Assembly: GCA_963771465.1 (NCBI GenBank)
Contig: CAVYTU010000014.1
Span: 1,056,001 to 1,120,000, forward strand
DNA from: an uncultured delta proteobacterium
GTDB taxonomy: Bacteria > Desulfobacterota > Binatia > UBA9968
Reading direction: 5' to 3'
DNA: 64,000 nt
The notes below the pieces were generated by a model that saw only the letters and a list, made by a program, of their open reading frames with translations, was not told where the DNA came from and made no database searches. The position numbers were made by a program, and so were the translations under genes. Below are positions 19,898 through 42,911 of this stretch, piece after piece (within the stretch, counting starts at the first letter, position 1; each line of letters opens with the position of its first letter).

Positions 19898-21730
19898 TTA
19901 CCAGCGAAATGGGTTGAGCACTTTGCCGACGTTCTCCATGTCCTGACGCATCTGATCGAATACGCCTTTGGGCGCTTCGTCTTGGCTCGTCGCAGACTTC
20001 TTCGTCTCGGCGAGACTTGCGGCGGAAGTTGTTGTTGAGGGCTGCACCGGCCCTTTGACCAATGAACGAGCCGGTGGCGCGCTCGCACTATCGGTGCTTT
20101 CTGGTTTCGCTTCCGGCTTTTTGGTTTCTTGCGCTGGCGTCGCGGCAGGCTGAATTTCCGTTGGGTTGAGGAATAGCGGCCCTTTTTCGAGCACCAGTTT
20201 GGGTTCCAGCTCGACGTTTCTAGACTGGGGCTTCTGCGCGGCAGCAGCTTTGATTTCTTCCGCTGACGGCGGCTTGGTAAAACCTCCCGGTTCCATTCCC
20301 TGAGCTTTGAGTTTTTGATCGATGCTGCTGAGGATACTGGAGGATGGTACTTCTTGATGCGAACCCTGCTCGGCTCTCGCAATCGCGGCTTGCGTCGCTG
20401 CGGCGTTCCTAAATGCCTCCGCCGATTCGGGTGTCGGTGGCAGCTCGGTGGAGTTTTTGCCGCTGCGTTGCAAATTGGCGTCGATCGAACTTAACAGCGC
20501 CACCGGGTCTTGAGTCGGCGCCGGGCCGGGTCCCGGCTTGGGCAGGTCGACCTCTGGTGTTTGCAGCGCCGCTTGGCGCGCCTGCGCATCGATGCCTTTT
20601 TCTTTCAGCGACTCGTCGACTTGGGCGACCACGCCGATGGCATTCTTGTCGCTCTCTTTTTTCTTTTCCTCATTTCTTCGAGCTAACATGTCGAGGCCGC
20701 TGGTCGGTTTCTTTTCTTCCTTCTTCGCGGTTTCCTGCTTCTTGTCGTCGTCAGAAGAAGAGAAAGGATTGATCTTGTCAGCGAAGCGGCGCAGAAATCC
20801 TTTTTCATCTCCCGGCTCTTCGTGCACCACGTCTTTTTTCGCCACGAGATTCAAATCTCTGAGCTTGGCCAGCGCCGGATCTTCTTTCGCCTCCGGCGCG
20901 GCAAGAGCACCCGGCCGGCGGTCGCGCATGAGTAACAACGCGAGCGGATCGCGCTTCTCTTTCTCGACGACTGCGAGCTGGGTTCTCGCTTCAGCGGCGA
21001 ATTTGCTCTGTGGATAATGTTGAATCAGCGCCTCGTAGGCGAGTGCGGCGCGCACACCGTTCTTTTCCAGGCGGTAACTCTCTCCCAGATAGAAAAGACT
21101 TTTCACCGAGGTCGGTGTGTCCTTGTATTTTCGGATGATTTCCTCAAACCGGTCCCGCGCGGCGACATATTTCTCTTGCTTGAAGTAGAATTCCGCGACG
21201 TTGAATTCATGCTCGGCGAGATACTCGACGGCTTTGGCAAGTTTCACTTGCGCTTCGGCGGCCTGCGGCGACTTTGGGTACTTGGTGACGACCGTCTCAA
21301 AATAGCCCTTGGCGATCTCGGTGGTTTTTTGGTCGCGATCGGTGGATGTGAATTGATCGAAGTGCGCTTGACCTAAACGCAGCGTGACCAGTGGCATATT
21401 CTCGTTGGTCGGATGCATCGATTGAAATTCTTTGAAGGCGTTGATCGATTCGGGATACTGCTGGTTTAAATAAAAAGCATCGGCCATTTTGAGCTCGGCT
21501 TGGGTGACCAACGGGCTGAACGGATTGTCGGTTCTGAGTTTTGAGAAGTTATCGATGGCGCGGACGTATTTCTTTTCGTTAAACGCGCGCGTGCCTTCTT
21601 CGAACAGCCCTTCCGCGGTTAGGTCGGCCTTGGGCGCAGAACTAAACCAGGGAATAGACGGTGCCGATGAAGAGCAACCGGCCGCGATGATGGCGGCCAG
21701 ACCGAGCGCCGTATGAAAAAAATGTTTCAT
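19898..21730 (-). CDS. bamD: Outer membrane protein assembly factor BamD with a long C-terminal extension
   Basis: Lipobox IAAGC; PFSP...AELKMADAFY, HPTNE, DRDQ, LAEHEFNVAEFYFK; then more than 300 aa rich in P/A/K/E/Q. Confidence 0.85.
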   Translation of the reverse strand: MKHFFHTALGLAAIIAAGCSSSAPSIPWFSSAPKADLTAEGLFEEGTRAFNEKKYVRAIDNFSKLRTDNPFSPLVTQAELKMADAFYLNQQYPESINAFKEFQSMHPTNENMPLVTLRLGQAHFDQFTSTDRDQKTTEIAKGYFETVVTKYPKSPQAAEAQVKLAKAVEYLAEHEFNVAEFYFKQEKYVAARDRFEEIIRKYKDTPTSVKSLFYLGESYRLEKNGVRAALAYEALIQHYPQSKFAAEARTQLAVVEKEKRDPLALLLMRDRRPGALAAPEAKEDPALAKLRDLNLVAKKDVVHEEPGDEKGFLRRFADKINPFSSSDDDKKQETAKKEEKKPTSGLDMLARRNEEKKKESDKNAIGVVAQVDESLKEKGIDAQARQAALQTPEVDLPKPGPGPAPTQDPVALLSSIDANLQRSGKNSTELPPTPESAEAFRNAAATQAAIARAEQGSHQEVPSSSILSSIDQKLKAQGMEPGGFTKPPSAEEIKAAAAQKPQSRNVELEPKLVLEKGPLFLNPTEIQPAATPAQETKKPEAKPESTDSASAPPARSLVKGPVQPSTTTSAASLAETKKSATSQDEAPKGVFDQMRQDMENVGKVLNPFRW

Positions 21731-38173: not shown

Positions 38174-38307
38174 GAGATTTCACCAACGGTGGACGCTAGC
38201 ATACGCCCCTAGGGGTAGCAAATTGTGTGGCCGATGGATGCGATTGTCCGACGTTTAACTGCATGTTAGTTAATTCAATAAGAATTCAAGCGACGGGAGA
38301 TTATCTA

Positions 38308-38847
38308 ATGATCGGAAAACTATCGGCTGGGATTGCCGGTTTGTGCCTATTGGTTGGCTGTTCGATGGCCGCGCCGGGAACGCGGGCGAGCGCCGCACTG
38401 AAAGAAGATGAAGATAAGGATGGCAAGACCATTGGCACGGCAACGTTAAGGGAACAATCGGGTGGCGTGCTGGTGCTCGTGCGCGTGGAGCCCAAAGGAC
38501 TAACGCCGGGTTTACACGCCGTGCATATTCACGCGGTCGGCAAATGCGACGCGCCGGCGTTCACTAGCGCGGCGGGTCACTTCAATCCGTCGGGGAAAAA
38601 ACATGGATCTAAGAGTGCTGAAGGCGCTCACGCCGGCGATATGCCGAATATGCTGGTGACCAAAGACGGTTCAGGCCGCTTTGAAGTTTTGGCCGACGGT
38701 ATCACGCTCCGCGCCGGACCGCTGTCGGTGTTCGACACCGACGGTAGCGCGCTGGTCATTCATGTAGGGGTGGACGATTATTTAACCGACCCTACCGGCA
38801 ATGCCGGCGATCGCGCCGCCTGTGGTTTGATCGTCGCGAGCAATTAG
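38308..38847 (+). CDS. sodC: Cu/Zn superoxide dismutase, lipoprotein
   Basis: Lipobox LVGC, HAVHIH, GHFNP, HAGDMPN, ALVIH, GNAGDRAACG. Confidence 0.92.
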   Translation: MIGKLSAGIAGLCLLVGCSMAAPGTRASAALKEDEDKDGKTIGTATLREQSGGVLVLVRVEPKGLTPGLHAVHIHAVGKCDAPAFTSAAGHFNPSGKKHGSKSAEGAHAGDMPNMLVTKDGSGRFEVLADGITLRAGPLSVFDTDGSALVIHVGVDDYLTDPTGNAGDRAACGLIVASN

Positions 38848-39602
38848 ATTCTCGATTCAAGGTAGTGCAGCCGAGCTCGACCGTGAGCTAGGCTAGCTTC
38901 GGCCTGCCGAATCCGTTCGACGGTTCCAAGATCCTGCCAGAAACCGTCGAAGCAAAATCCATAGAGCGCTTCGCCGGCGAGCAGCATTTGCGGATAGGTC
39001 TTCTGGGTCGTGCTGAATTTTTCACCGGCGCCTTGGGCGGCCATGTAAGCGAAGATCTTCGGCTCGATAATCTGCACGCCGGTGAACATGAGTTTGCGCA
39101 GCGGTCCGGCTGGCTGGGCGGCAATCTTGCTATTGAGGAAGCGATGGATTCTGCCGTCGTCATCGATGTCCATGGAGCCGTATTGATCGGCCATTTCATC
39201 CGGCCGAAGCACCAACGTTACGGCGGCCTTCTTTCGCTCATGGAAGGCAATCAGCTCGGCGAGATTGAGATCGATGAGCGCATCGGTATTAATGACGATG
39301 AAGCCGCCGTCGTGGAGAAACGATTTGGCTTTCAGCAAGCCGCCGCCGGTGTCCAGCAACTCTACTTCTTTGGAATAACTGATTCTGACACCGAGCTGCG
39401 CGCCGTCGCCGAGATGGCTCTCGATCTGGTCACCGAATTGATGCAGGTTGATGACGATGTCGCGAATGTCGTAATGGCGCAGCAATAGGAGCGCATATTC
39501 GATCATCGGCCGGCCGGCCACCGGCACCAGCGCTTTTGGTTTGTCGTCGGTGATTGGCCTCAAGCGCGTCCCTTGGCCCGCGGCCAGAATCATCGCTTTC
39601 AC
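38844..39602 (-). CDS. murU: Nucleotidyltransferase, MurU-like (MurNAc-alpha-1-phosphate uridylyltransferase)
   Basis: KAMILAAGQGTRLRPIT...PKAL, LDTGGGL, WQDLGT; coupled to the amgK-like gene. Confidence 0.75.
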   Translation of the reverse strand: MKAMILAAGQGTRLRPITDDKPKALVPVAGRPMIEYALLLLRHYDIRDIVINLHQFGDQIESHLGDGAQLGVRISYSKEVELLDTGGGLLKAKSFLHDGGFIVINTDALIDLNLAELIAFHERKKAAVTLVLRPDEMADQYGSMDIDDDGRIHRFLNSKIAAQPAGPLRKLMFTGVQIIEPKIFAYMAAQGAGEKFSTTQKTYPQMLLAGEALYGFCFDGFWQDLGTVERIRQAEASLAHGRARLHYLESRI

Positions 39603-40675
39603 AGCATCGCCTCGAAGTGCTCGAGCAGTAAGGGTCGGATTGATTGGGTTTGCGCGGTCTCTGCCAAGTTACGCTGCAAACGCCGCACGGTGGGCGGCAC
39701 GAACTTCATATAGCCCGGCTTCCCTTTGACGATATCGAGATAGTAAAAACGGCCGACAACTTTTAAGTCCCGTTGAATCGCCGAGAGCCGATAGATGTCG
39801 CTAAACTGGTCAAAATCCGCATGCTGTTTTTCCAGCTCGCACTTACGCTCGAAGAAGTAACGCACGAGTCGGGCCTCGATATCAGGCTGAATCACGCTGT
39901 CGGTGATGCGATCGTTCAATAACGAAGCAAGGTCGTATTGCGCCGGCGCCAACAGCGCGTCTTGGAAATCGATGACGCGCACGGTGTTCTCGTGGATCAT
40001 GAGATTCCAGCTATGATAGTCGCGATGGTTCAAATAGACGGGTTGGCGCTCGAGAGTCGCCGCGATTTCGCTGAAAACTTTTCGCAGTGCGTCGGTGCTG
40101 ACCTTGGCGATTTTTCCGCCCGGACGTTTTTCCAATCCCCACTCGATGAAGTGCTCGAACTCCCACATGTAGAGTGAAGCGTCGAAGCGCTGTTGAAAGG
40201 CGATACATCGATCGTCGCGCGCCGCCGTGCCGCGGAATTGCAGGTTGAGTAACTCGTCGAGCGCTTTTCGATACCAGACGATCACTTCGCTTTCAGCTAA
40301 ACCCTGCACTCTGTCCCACAACGCGGTGTCACCCAAGTCTTCGAGAAAGAGCAAGCCATCACTTTCCCACTGGCCGAAGAGTTTGGGCACGTTGACGCCG
40401 ATGGCCTCCAGAAAGCGATGCACATTTAAGAACGGTAGTTCTTGCGGGCCGTCTTTGAAGATCGCCAGCTCTTCGCTGGAAAGCGGCAGGGCGCTGCCCG
40501 CCGGCAGTTCCATGACGATCATCGTGGGCGGCGCGCCGGCGCCGCTCAAACGGGCGCGGTAGTAACGCCGGCTCGAGGCGTCGCCGGCGAGCGGCGCCAG
40601 TGACGTGAGCGATGCGCCGGGGCCAAACGCAGCGAGAACTTTGTCGGCGATGCGCTGAGTGATCGGATCAGTCAA
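39599..40675 (-). CDS. amgK: APH-family sugar kinase, AmgK-like
   Basis: LAGDASSRRYYR, LEDLGD, HRDYHSWNLM, IDFQDA, YDLASLL, QRDLKVVG. Confidence 0.8.
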   Translation of the reverse strand: MTDPITQRIADKVLAAFGPGASLTSLAPLAGDASSRRYYRARLSGAGAPPTMIVMELPAGSALPLSSEELAIFKDGPQELPFLNVHRFLEAIGVNVPKLFGQWESDGLLFLEDLGDTALWDRVQGLAESEVIVWYRKALDELLNLQFRGTAARDDRCIAFQQRFDASLYMWEFEHFIEWGLEKRPGGKIAKVSTDALRKVFSEIAATLERQPVYLNHRDYHSWNLMIHENTVRVIDFQDALLAPAQYDLASLLNDRITDSVIQPDIEARLVRYFFERKCELEKQHADFDQFSDIYRLSAIQRDLKVVGRFYYLDIVKGKPGYMKFVPPTVRRLQRNLAETAQTQSIRPLLLEHFEAML

Positions 40676-40732
40676 TTTTTGCCTACGGTCGAGCTTGGAC
40701 GATTGCGACGGTTGAAGCGAAGATTCGCTGAG

Positions 40733-40771
40733 CGTGAAGTGCCGGCGACCGCCGGTGCGTTAGACTTCTCA
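40733..40771 (-). promoter_or_regulatory. Candidate bacterial SECIS element
   Basis: Minus strand: TGA GAAGT CTAACGCA CCGGC GGTC GCCGG C ACTTC. Upper stem CCGGC/GCCGG with a GGUC loop starting 18 nt after UGA; lower stem GAAGU/ACUUC. Confidence 0.75.
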
Positions 40772-40984
40772 CGTGCCGCCGAAACCGACCGTGATCTTGC
40801 CGGCGTCGACGATGACCGGAATCTTGCGCCGGCCGTTGGTTAACTTGACCATGCGCTCGAGGCCGTCTTCGTCTTTTAGCACGTTGATATATTCGAATGG
40901 GATCTTGCGCCGGGAGAAGTCGGCGCGGGCCGCCGAAGTGTACTGGCAAAGATCCTGTCCGAATATGAGAACTTTTTCGTCCAT
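40760..40984 (-). CDS. Glutaredoxin-like selenoprotein ending GFGGT-U-E-V-stop (UXX-star type), 74 aa
   Basis: Grx/NrdH-like features (CQYT, EYINV, RKIPVIV, GF). TGA at 40771-40769 is followed by GAA GTC TAA and a SECIS-like hairpin. Confidence 0.8.
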
Positions 40985-41121
40985 GAGTCGATTCGCCTCG
41001 CGCCGTTCAAGGTTTGCCGCAGCTAAAAAATAAGCAGCCGGGGGCTAAATTGCAAGTGAGTCTACCCCTATGTTACTTTCGTGAGAATTTATTCAACCGG
41101 TTTACCCGTGGAGAGGAATTT

Positions 41122-42039
41122 GTGACGATCCGCACTGCCATCGCTCAGATCAACCCAAAGCTTGGCGACCTCCAAGCGAACCTTGCGCTGTACGAAGCGA
41201 AAATTCGCCAGGGAATCGAACATCGCGCCGAGCTGCTGCTGTTTCCCGAGTTGAGCCTGACCGGTTACTTTCTGCGCGATACCGTACCCAACGTGGCGCT
41301 GACGCTCGATTCAGTCGAAATGACCGCGCTCAAAAGATTGAGCCGCGAACTGCCCTTCGTCGCCGGGCTGGTCGAGGAAAGCGCCGATCACCGCTTTTTT
41401 AATTCTGCGGTCTATTTCGAGGACGGCGAGATTCGCCACGTGCATCGGAAAGTTTATTTGCCGACCTATGGGATGTTCGACGAGCAGCGCTATTTCGCCA
41501 GAGGTGACCGGGTGCGTGCCTTCGATTCCAAGTTTGGCCGCTTGGTGCTGCTCATCTGCGAGGATCTCTGGCACCCATCGACGATCTATCTGGCGGCGCT
41601 CGATGGCGCGTTGGCGGTGATCTGTCCGTCGTCGAGTCCGCTCCGCGGTGTCGTCGATGACCAGGTCCAAGACGACAACGCGCGCTACTGGGAGATGATC
41701 AACCGGGCTTATGCCGAGACTTATAGTTTGTTCATGCTCTACGCCAACCGCTGTGGCTTTGAAGATGGCGTCGGCTTTTGGGGCGGGTCGGAGATCGTCG
41801 ATCCTTTTGGCCAGCGGCTGGCCAAAGCGAAATATTACGACGAGGATTTTATCGTCAGCGAAGTCGCCTTCCAAGCGGTGCGGCGCAAGCGGACGATGTC
41901 GCCATTATTGCGCGACGAAGATATGGATCTGACGATCAACGAGCTAATGCGCATTCGCGAGCGGCCGGCGGCGACCAAGGGGGTTCAAAAGTTCAAAAGT
42001 TCAAGGGCTCAAGGTTTCCGCAAACCGAAGAAGCGATAA
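41122..42039 (+). CDS. Nitrilase-family C-N hydrolase, probable glutaminase subunit of NAD synthetase
   Basis: [44 protein letters not shown] (E-K-C triad); directly upstream of nadE. Confidence 0.88.
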
Positions 42040-42089
42040 CGATCGCGCATCGAACGAATTGCCGCGAGCGACTCAGCTTGCACTCTCCC

Positions 42090-42911
42090 ATGATCCAAAT
42101 TCCCACCAACACTACTTTGTTGCGCGAGATTCTTACCGCGTTCATTCGTAACGAGGTGCACAAGACCGGCCTTAAGCGCGTGGTCATCGGTTTGTCCGGC
42201 GGCGTCGATTCGGCGCTGAGCGCAATGCTCGCCGCAGAGGCCCTCGGGCCGAAAAACGTCTTGGGTATTTTAATGCCGTACAAAAGCTCCAATCCAGACA
42301 GCCAGGAGCATGCTGAGCTGGTCGCGCAACAAAGCGGCATTGAAACTCTGCTGGTGGAAATCACGCCGCAGATTGACGCCTATTTTGCCAAGTTTGCGGA
42401 CGCGGATGCGCGCCGGCGCGGCAATAAGATGGCGCGCGAGCGAATGACGATTCTCTACGATCACTCGGCGCGCTGGAACGCGTTGGTGTTGGGTACAAGC
42501 AATAAGACCGAGCTGCTGCTGGGCTACGGTACGCTCTACGGCGACATGGCTTCAGCGATCAATCCAATGGGTGATCTCTATAAAACTCAGGTGTGGGCGC
42601 TGGCCGAAGCGGTCGGCGTGCCGCCCGCTATCGTGCAAAAAGACCCGTCCGCCGATCTTTGGGTCGGCCAGACCGATGAAGGCGAGTTGGGGTTTACCTA
42701 TCGTGAAGTCGACAAATTGCTCTTCTTAATGGTCGATCAGCGCTACACCCGGGCGGAGCTGATCGCCGCTGGCTTTCCCGAACGCTTTGTCGACGAAGTC
42801 GCGCTCGGCATTATGAATTCGCAATTCAAACGGCGTCTGCCGGTCATCGCCAAGGTGTCGCAGCGCACGATTGACCGTGATTTTCGCTATTCCAGAGACT
42901 GGGGCAAATGA
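42090..42911 (+). CDS. nadE: NAD+ synthetase (single-domain)
   Basis: [44 protein letters not shown]. Confidence 0.95.

Follow-up and report, generated by a model that had tools for sequence, protein, structure and literature searches.

A catalogued UXX-star family 1 selenoprotein gene in an uncultured Binatia genome, with a SECIS-like hairpin across its true stop codon

The 64,000-nucleotide stretch analysed here (the window, from contig CAVYTU010000014.1 of an uncultured Binatia bacterium) carries on its minus strand a short gene whose open reading frame (ORF) appears to end at a TGA codon, 40769..40771. An original prediction took this TGA for a selenocysteine (Sec) codon, followed by a selenocysteine insertion sequence (SECIS) element. 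Judged from its sequence, the gene truly belongs to UXX-star selenoprotein family 1, in the form with Cys13 and Sec72, and is nothing new in kind. The prediction is supported, but since the family is already catalogued, what it read correctly was a gene of a known type and not a discovery. The family match, the complete Sec trait of the genome, a fixed TGA with conserved codons behind it and a covarying SECIS-type hairpin together lead to the Sec reading of TGA72. The explanation as a whole, which comprises the family identity, decoding by SelB and SECIS, a redox role for Sec72 and Cys13 and a lineage-specific co-transcription, appears very probable.

The frame that opens on the minus strand with the ATG at 40984 reads MDEKVLIFGQDLCQYT...GKITVGFGGT and then runs into TGA. 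This codon is followed by GAA GTC (40768-40763) and TAA (40762-40760), just as the prediction had described for a 71-residue ORF ending in GFGGT-TGA. An in-frame TGA, two sense codons and a stop make up the UXX-star layout. The features of the locus are as follows.

40760..40984, minus strand: coding sequence of the UXX-star family 1 protein, 74 amino acids, with ATG at 40984-40982 and the true stop TAA at 40762-40760.
40937..40948, minus strand: CQYT, the N-terminal redox motif [U/C]xxT, codons 13-16, with Cys (TGC) in the window gene.
40769..40771, minus strand: UGA codon 72, read as Sec; TGA in 30/30 and 24/24 related loci, with Sec machinery in the genome.
40736..40768, minus strand: SECIS-like hairpin, which takes in codons 73-74 and the stop codon and is for the most part 3' untranslated.

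The window gene has a single Sec. A table-11 ORF list gives the 71-residue form (40769..40984), and the public protein collection holds the same 71 residues as a 'glutaredoxin' ('glutaredoxin 3'), because plain ORF callers stop at TGA72 and so shorten the product. The selenoprotein was thus 'hidden', as the prediction put it, from plain ORF callers, but not otherwise, the family being catalogued and the 71-residue form being in the public collection.

Comparison of the 74-residue product with the NCBIfam model NF041114.2, 'UXX-star selenoprotein family 1', yielded 104.1 bits against a cut-off of 72, with model positions 1-70 of 70 aligned to residues 5-74, through the last residue. This full-length match agrees with the predicted product of 74 residues with an N-terminal CQYT and a near-terminal Sec, and UXX-star glutaredoxin-like families, to which the prediction had referred, are indeed curated in NCBIfam. 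A six-frame search of the genome with NF041114 gave 96.6 bits at the window locus, with one TGA inside the match. The broader model NF041212, 'Uxx-star family glutaredoxin-like (seleno)protein', was also passed (89.5 bits, cut-off 66), and Pfam detected a Glutaredoxin domain (PF00462, 35.6 bits). Two homologues in the public collection have already been named 'UXX-star (seleno)protein family 1' by NCBI. The sister models stayed below their own cut-offs, with 60 bits against 100 for NF041211, 54.3 against 97 for NF047338 and 55.2 against 325 for NF045501. The same was true of the classical models TIGR02196 YruB (37.6 against 88.55), TIGR02181 GRX_bact (28.9 against 90) and TIGR02194 NrdH (26.3 against 85.75), and the NCBIfam models for mycoredoxin and Grx3 were likewise far under their cut-offs for the window protein. 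A classical glutaredoxin or NrdH identity was rejected on these scores, on the CQYT in place of CxxC or CGFS and on the lack of a helix after strand 4.

Conservation of the TGA was followed in a draw of 41 related genomes, the window's own included, from which 30 returned loci were read, the window gene among them; one of the 30, from genome G005, is flagged as unpublished, and no count rests on that locus alone. An above-cut-off NF041114 match was found in 36 of the 41 genomes, each with one or two in-frame TGAs, and one of the five genomes without such a match is only 65% complete. The window protein and its 29 relatives form a 74-column alignment without gaps, in which T16, cis-Pro56 and the G67-F68-x-G70 turn are invariant and a tail [S/T]-U-x-V stands where glutaredoxins go on into a helix. 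Codon 72 is TGA in all 30 loci and never TAA or TAG. Exactly two sense codons follow it in every locus, and then TAG (17 loci), TGA (7) or TAA (6); residue 74 is Val in 29 loci and Ile in one. A TGA that stays fixed while the real stop drifts among three stop codons is the opposite of an ordinary terminator codon. In the seven loci that end U-x-V-UGA (L032, L048, L050, L051, L053, L055 and L056) two UGAs lie 9 nt apart, of which the first must be decoded as Sec while the second terminates translation.

The prediction had looked for an interchange of TGA and Cys at codon 72. No Cys form was found there, but the interchange was seen at codon 13, which is TGA in 23 of the 30 loci (motif U-P/A/H/D-Y/F-T) and TGC or TGT in the other seven, the window gene included. 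Among loci L027-L056, these 23 have a second Sec codon at the N-terminal site (DL-U-PYT). In such dual-Sec relatives, minimum free energy (MFE) folds viewed by eye hint at a hairpin within the coding region, its G-rich apical loop lying about 19 nt after UGA13, and in the Cys13 forms, the window gene among them, the stem after codon 13 looks weakened in the same kind of inspection.

Assignments of Sec usually draw on homologues that have Cys in its place, and such homologues were also sought more widely. Among the 120 homologues listed of 134 matches in the public protein collection, none has Cys at position 72; 111 end right after GFGG[S/T/N] or GYGGS, three continue with W and six fall outside the pattern. 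The three with W reflect a gene caller that read TGA as Trp. One of them, protein P0108 (KDT-W-PYT ... GFGGT-W), has Trp at both Sec sites, an annotation artefact of a TGA=Trp code on a dual-Sec gene. A pattern scan of 185,579 species genomes, in which the back-translated ...GFGG[ST]C was included, returned 24 confirmed relatives, all 24 with TGA72 and two codons before the stop and none with Cys-72; these searches were word- or pattern-limited, and rare Cys-72 forms could escape them. The two codons and stop for which the prediction had called were accordingly conserved in 30/30 and 24/24 loci, although the 24 were found through the Cys13 motif and partly overlap the 41-genome draw, so that the two sets are not independent. 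The scan relatives are labelled as metagenome-assembled genomes of uncultured 'Candidatus Binatia', 'Deltaproteobacteria', 'Thermodesulfobacteriota', 'Syntrophobacter(aceae)', 'Ca. Eisenbacteria' and 'Ca. Limnocylindrales'. With seven of the 30 loci and the 24 scan loci in the Cys13 form, this form is a common one and not a new one.

Of 301 genomes sampled evenly across the phylum, 70 had an above-cut-off NF041114 match, giving 72 rows, 70 of them with one or two TGAs. The remaining two rows (L057, G156:C37; L058, G310:C322) have no TGA inside the match; they are atypical paralogues whose tails are longer or of another kind, and in both a TGA comes slightly later. One of this pair combines CPFC at the N-terminal site with an insertion before ...FGGT-U-SV and lacks a stop two codons on; in the other, a GYGGS-U tail is followed by more TGAs.

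The genome (6.9 Mb in 19 contigs, 99.4% complete) was found to contain the genes for which the prediction had proposed to look. selA (614.1 bits), selB (358.6) and selD (376.3) adjoin one another at G000:C14:197319-201637, all above their cut-offs, on the window's contig and about 0.9 Mb from the window. A tRNA-Sec (76.7 bits, above cut-off) lies on another contig and has the anticodon TCA according to ARAGORN. The selD gene (L011, G000:C14:200711-201637), directly after selA and selB, has one in-frame TGA (...KAAG-U-AAKLGP), so the selenophosphate synthetase of this genome is itself a selenoprotein.

Folding of the 44 nt from the UGA gave a structure at -11.3 kcal/mol with a lower stem GAAGU/ACUUC (40768-40764 / 40740-40736), an asymmetric internal loop, an upper stem of 5 bp (CCGGC 40755-40751 / GCCGG 40746-40742) and a GGUC loop (40750-40747) 18 nt from the UGA, which is precisely the hairpin that had been predicted. 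It overlaps codons 73-74 and the stop, so the claim that the element straddles the true stop holds. An extract of the review of prokaryotic selenoproteins by Zhang et al. 2026 (PMC13188914) gives a consensus model of the bacterial SECIS (bSECIS) with a loop of 3-9 nt, a stem of at least 4 bp, a G in the first two loop positions, a spacing of 16-37 nt and an MFE of -7.5 or lower. With its 4-nt loop, 5-bp upper stem, 18-nt distance and -11.3 kcal/mol, the window hairpin lies within every one of these bounds.

A single hairpin of this kind is weak evidence, since 16 of the 1990 TGA trinucleotides in the window (0.8%), this one included, are followed by a similar one under the rule of a stem of at least 5 bp and a loop that starts with GG 15-19 nt downstream. 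Another of the 16, the SECIS-like hairpin after the TGA at 20511 (plus strand), lies inside a 613-residue gene on the opposite strand and was dismissed as a chance match. The fold energy did no better than dinucleotide shuffles and was therefore dropped as evidence, conservation being used in its place.

In all 30 loci a G+C-rich hairpin with an invariant GG at the start of the loop follows the UGA. The stems have 4-8 bp (at least 5 bp in 29 loci and 4 bp in one). Loops of 3 nt (GGU or GGC) and of 4 nt (GGUC) were counted in 14 loci each and the 5-nt loop GGUCC in two, and the distance from UGA to loop is 18 nt in 17 loci, 16 nt in nine, 15 nt in two, and 17 and 19 nt in one each. Because a MAFFT alignment of the 45 nt after the UGA put the 3' arm of one clade one column off, pairs were counted anchored on the invariant GG. 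Of the cells of the five loop-proximal pairs, 149/150 are canonical, and sliding the 3' arm by -2 to +3 positions leaves 13-47%; the loop length was picked for each sequence to maximise the stem, which biases the canonical percentage somewhat upward. Both-sided changes occur at four of the five pair positions (C-G/A-U; G-C/A-U via G-U; G-C/C-G; C-G/G-C). Three distant members from the phylum sample have stems of unrelated sequence at the same place, CUGGCA-GGC-UGCCAG, CUGGC-AGUUA-GCCAG and CCCGCA-GGUC-UGCGGG. Conservation and covariation lift the hairpin above chance. This concerns the upper stem and the GG loop, for which the expected conservation was found; the lower stem GAAGU/ACUUC, also part of the predicted element, occurs only in the window sequence, where its 5' arm is codons 73-74, and the relatives have no complementary 3' arm.

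Several observations speak against the Sec reading. The fold energy is ordinary for G+C-rich DNA (z = -0.35, with 70 of 200 dinucleotide shuffles as good), and the addition of 10 upstream bases changes the MFE structure. No Rfam SECIS family was found in 40500-41100 even at E values up to 10, which says little as short bacterial SECIS elements are diverse; the sole Rfam match in this interval was a chance small RNA on the other strand and was discarded. In addition, the relatives are kin, and the 30/30 counts overstate the independent support. These points, together with the chance rate of similar hairpins and the fact that table-11 callers give exactly a 71-residue protein, would suit a TGA that is an ordinary stop, with a monothiol glutaredoxin-like product of 71 residues and a hairpin that is incidental or regulatory in the spacer. 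Such a stop would have to avoid TAA and TAG in 30/30 and 24/24 loci while the stop two codons on uses all three, and the supposedly untranslated codons would have to keep both frame and identity, with Val or Ile at position 74 in 30/30. The covarying hairpin, the curated model that matches through U-x-x to its last position and the complete Sec trait of the genome also argue against it, and we regard an ordinary stop as hardly credible.

For the Sec reading of TGA72, we propose the following decoding steps, drawn from the anatomy of the gene and the established bacterial Sec pathway. With the ribosome at UGA72, SelB carrying GTP and Sec-tRNA(Sec) would be held at the G+C-rich hairpin, whose GGUC loop lies 18 nt downstream, and would deliver Sec at UGA72 in competition with release factor 2 (RF2). 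The ribosome would then melt the hairpin, add Glu73 and Val74 and terminate at UAA. The putative SECIS would thus overlap just two sense codons and the stop and would otherwise be 3' untranslated.

The structure of the product was predicted with AlphaFold2 from the 30-row alignment, with a mean predicted local distance difference test (pLDDT) of 79.6 and a predicted template modelling (TM) score, pTM, of 0.68. The model shows the topology beta(5-9)-alpha(14-25)-beta(30-34)-alpha(39-48)-beta(57-60)-beta(63-66), with no C-terminal helix and with an eight-residue C-terminal tail at lower confidence. Together with the Pfam match it reveals a glutaredoxin-like (thioredoxin) fold with [U/C]xxT at the N-terminus of helix 1. 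The best Foldseek matches were glutaredoxins, the 74-residue thioredoxin-like protein BC3987 (TM 0.75) and the glutaredoxin domains of thioredoxin-glutathione reductases. The closest solved sequence is an 84-residue glutaredoxin (7c10/7c12, E = 5e-5), and its alignment ends at VGF-G/D, right before the tail.

On this basis the product may be a minimal thioredoxin-fold protein, with a monothiol-type CQYT at the start of helix 1 and Sec72 on a short flexible tail after the GFGG turn. Sec72 would be the obligate reactive centre and would cycle with Cys13 through an intramolecular selenenylsulfide (a diselenide with Sec13 in most relatives). That Sec72 is always kept, as against the free exchange of U and C at position 13, marks it as the indispensable centre. 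The role of Sec72 and residue 13 as a redox pair, argued by analogy, is plausible and is put forward tentatively. The GCUG tail of animal thioredoxin reductase serves as the working model for the Sec72 tail. An extension of this analogy, which we find possible but doubtful, is that the protein might be a 74-residue, self-contained analogue of that reductase tail, with an obligate Sec72 and a natural, conserved, 3'-untranslated bacterial SECIS. Sec72 would then bridge the active-site groove to residue 13 as a selenenylsulfide or diselenide and hand electrons on to a substrate beyond the reach of sulfur chemistry.

The pairing of positions 13 and 72 meets with objections of its own. The tail has a pLDDT of only about 56 in the model, which weakens the idea that the two residues are close. 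The argument for proximity supposes that residues just after the GG turn adjoin the active-site Cys in (monothiol) glutaredoxins; a literature search found no paper in which a resolving Cys follows the GG motif of a monothiol glutaredoxin. Furthermore, a different role, soft-metal ligation, is mentioned in an extract of the review (PMC13188914). The protein might then be a true family selenoprotein in which Sec72 and Cys13 bind a soft metal or metalloid, for chaperoning or detoxification, and do not form a catalytic redox pair. A Sec72 that is never replaced by Cys would suit a selenium-dependent affinity, and about 2 kb away the opposite strand carries a gene resembling that of a Cu/Zn superoxide dismutase, a weak pointer. 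Thiol-disulfide oxidoreductases, by contrast, share with the protein its fold, its cis-Pro and a [U/C]xxT where the helix starts, and no metal-transport or metal-resistance gene stands beside the gene in any neighbourhood read. The neighbours read encode AmgK-like and MurU-like proteins, CN-hydrolase and NAD synthase, a Dabb+isochorismatase fusion, an FMN dehydrogenase, an ABC permease, GH65 and a metallophosphoesterase. Metal binding seems a possible role, though not one that we favour over the redox pair of Sec72 and Cys13.

The genes around the selenoprotein gene are the following.

39599..40675, minus strand: APH-family kinase, AmgK-like (PF01636), co-oriented, 84 nt after the selenoprotein stop.
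38844..39602, minus strand: nucleotidyltransferase, MurU-like (PF00483), co-oriented, next after the AmgK-like gene.
41014..42039, plus strand: CN-hydrolase (glutaminase-type domain; PF00795), divergent, upstream of the selenoprotein gene.
42090-42911, plus strand: NAD+ synthase ORF (NF010587, 339.8 bits, cut-off 255), following the CN-hydrolase.

The original prediction had placed the gene directly upstream of, and co-oriented with, amgK-murU. The orientation was confirmed, but both genes score under the equivalog cut-offs: the kinase reached 105.4 bits against 550 for NF045759 and 90.6 against 500 for a second AmgK model, and the nucleotidyltransferase 168.6 against 250 for NF045761 and 113.9 against 370 for a second MurU model. 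As these are best matches only, the genes are named AmgK-like and MurU-like. The linkage is moreover lineage-specific. The AmgK-like gene follows in 20 of the 30 loci, namely in the window's genus and one genome of another family, and in 19 of these 20 a MurU-like gene starts after it, the remaining locus ending inside the AmgK-like gene. A sister family (eight loci) is without the AmgK-like/MurU-like trio, and the downstream ORF, scanned in L041 and L053, is a Dabb+isochorismatase fusion there; L042 and L047 have unrelated neighbours. The divergent CN-hydrolase is upstream in 18 of the 30 loci.

No terminator-like site was found on the minus strand in the 84-nt spacer between the selenoprotein gene and the AmgK-like gene. 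Contigs from three soil metatranscriptome libraries of three studies fall on the gene, at 40665-40949 (0 differences), 40624-40812 (2) and 40758-40908 (1), and the second of them runs across the stop and the hairpin into the AmgK-like gene, of which it covers 52 nt. These contigs cover parts of 39500-41100, and the uncovered parts carry no meaning. They give a weak hint of expression and co-transcription, tempered by the fact that RNA libraries may contain DNA and that contigs prove no single transcript. In the window's lineage the selenoprotein gene probably shares a transcript with the AmgK-like and MurU-like genes, a linkage that is not a property of the family.

The arrangement in 20/30 loci, the spacer without a terminator-like site and the RNA-library contig across the junction could also point to a selenoprotein that is the dedicated redox partner of the AmgK-like kinase and the MurU-like uridylyltransferase in cell-wall recycling. 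We know of no redox step in the AmgK/MurU pathway. The trio is absent from 10 of the 30 loci, L041 and L053 having the Dabb+isochorismatase fusion in its place, and neither neighbour reaches its AmgK or MurU equivalog cut-off. In addition, the CN-hydrolase pair is kept about as often (18/30) as the trio (20/30), so the arrangement is read as synteny among kin and not as a family module. A dedicated link with cell-wall recycling is considered improbable.

Further observations concern the surroundings and the rest of the genome. The CN-hydrolase and NAD+ synthase ORFs (41014-42911, plus strand) resemble a split glutamine-dependent NAD synthetase; as their stop-to-stop frames overlap, the start of the NAD+ synthase gene is uncertain. 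The superoxide dismutase-like ORF (38227-38847, plus strand; NF047632, 121.7 bits against 250) is convergent with the MurU-like gene. Elsewhere in the genome, a 75-residue YruB/NrdH-like glutaredoxin (G000:C7:23987-24175; L024, ~1495-1722) has a TGA in its active site, PG-U-GPC, and its best NCBIfam match is TIGR02196 (70 bits against 88.55). By its sequence it is likely a second glutaredoxin-type selenoprotein of this genome. An open frame of about 258 residues (G000:C14:148336-148503; L025, ~1477-2250) has a glutaredoxin-like N-terminal domain with PG-U-SSC, the U again being TGA, and then an unassigned domain of about 190 residues, which makes it a candidate fused selenoprotein.

The window therefore adds one properly read Cys13/Sec72 member to a catalogued family. 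The family is widespread in the phylum (70/301 sampled genomes) and Sec-only at position 72. The family would also be a natural exception to the textbook statement that a bacterial SECIS lies within the coding region, a point already implied by the family name.

The closest known system is UXX-star family 1 itself, with which the window gene shares the full-length match, the glutaredoxin-like fold, [U/C]xxT and Sec as the third-last residue, with two codons between it and the stop. Table 1 of the review by Zhang et al. 2026 (PMC13188914) lists the family as 'Distant Grx-like protein 1', and the entry gives the motif UxxT and two Sec residues, whereas the window gene has CQYT and a single Sec. 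In a full-text literature search the name 'UXX-star' was not found outside this review, an extract of which cites Haft & Tolstoy 2025 (mSystems) for UXX-star family 2 and the fusion forms; Zhang & Gladyshev 2008 (PMC2398784) do not use 'Distant Grx-like protein 1' in their main text. UXX-star families 2 and 3 and the HUGP/GUXX-star fusion (NF041211, NF047338, NF045501) have related glutaredoxin-like domains and a U-x-x-stop end, but the window protein is below their cut-offs. Classical glutaredoxins, NrdH and YruB are similar in the thioredoxin fold, the active site at the N-terminus of helix 1, the cis-Pro before strand 3 and the G-G turn after strand 4; unlike classical glutaredoxins, the window protein has CxxT in place of CxxC or CGFS, and the tail [S/T]-U-x-V replaces the C-terminal helix.

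The hairpin resembles the Escherichia coli fdhF-type and consensus bSECIS elements in its small GG(U) loop, its G+C-rich upper stem and the position of the loop 15-19 nt after the UGA. It differs from the fdhF-type element in being almost wholly outside the reading frame, in its upper stem of 5 bp and in having no Rfam match, and an extract of the review (PMC13188914) places bacterial SECIS elements within coding regions. Its GGUC loop is that of the minimal 17-nt E. coli-type SECIS described in a study from the Arner laboratory (PMC3834832), in which pET-TRSTER, for expression of rat TrxR1 in E. coli, has this SECIS behind the stop codon and Sec insertion depends on SelB and the SECIS. The two systems are alike in a near-C-terminal Sec (U-G-stop there, U-E-V-stop here) and in a hairpin with a GGUC loop behind the stop. 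pET-TRSTER, as described in that source, is engineered and concerns a flavoenzyme, whereas the window case is natural and conserved and belongs to a 74-residue glutaredoxin-fold protein, with a different stem sequence.

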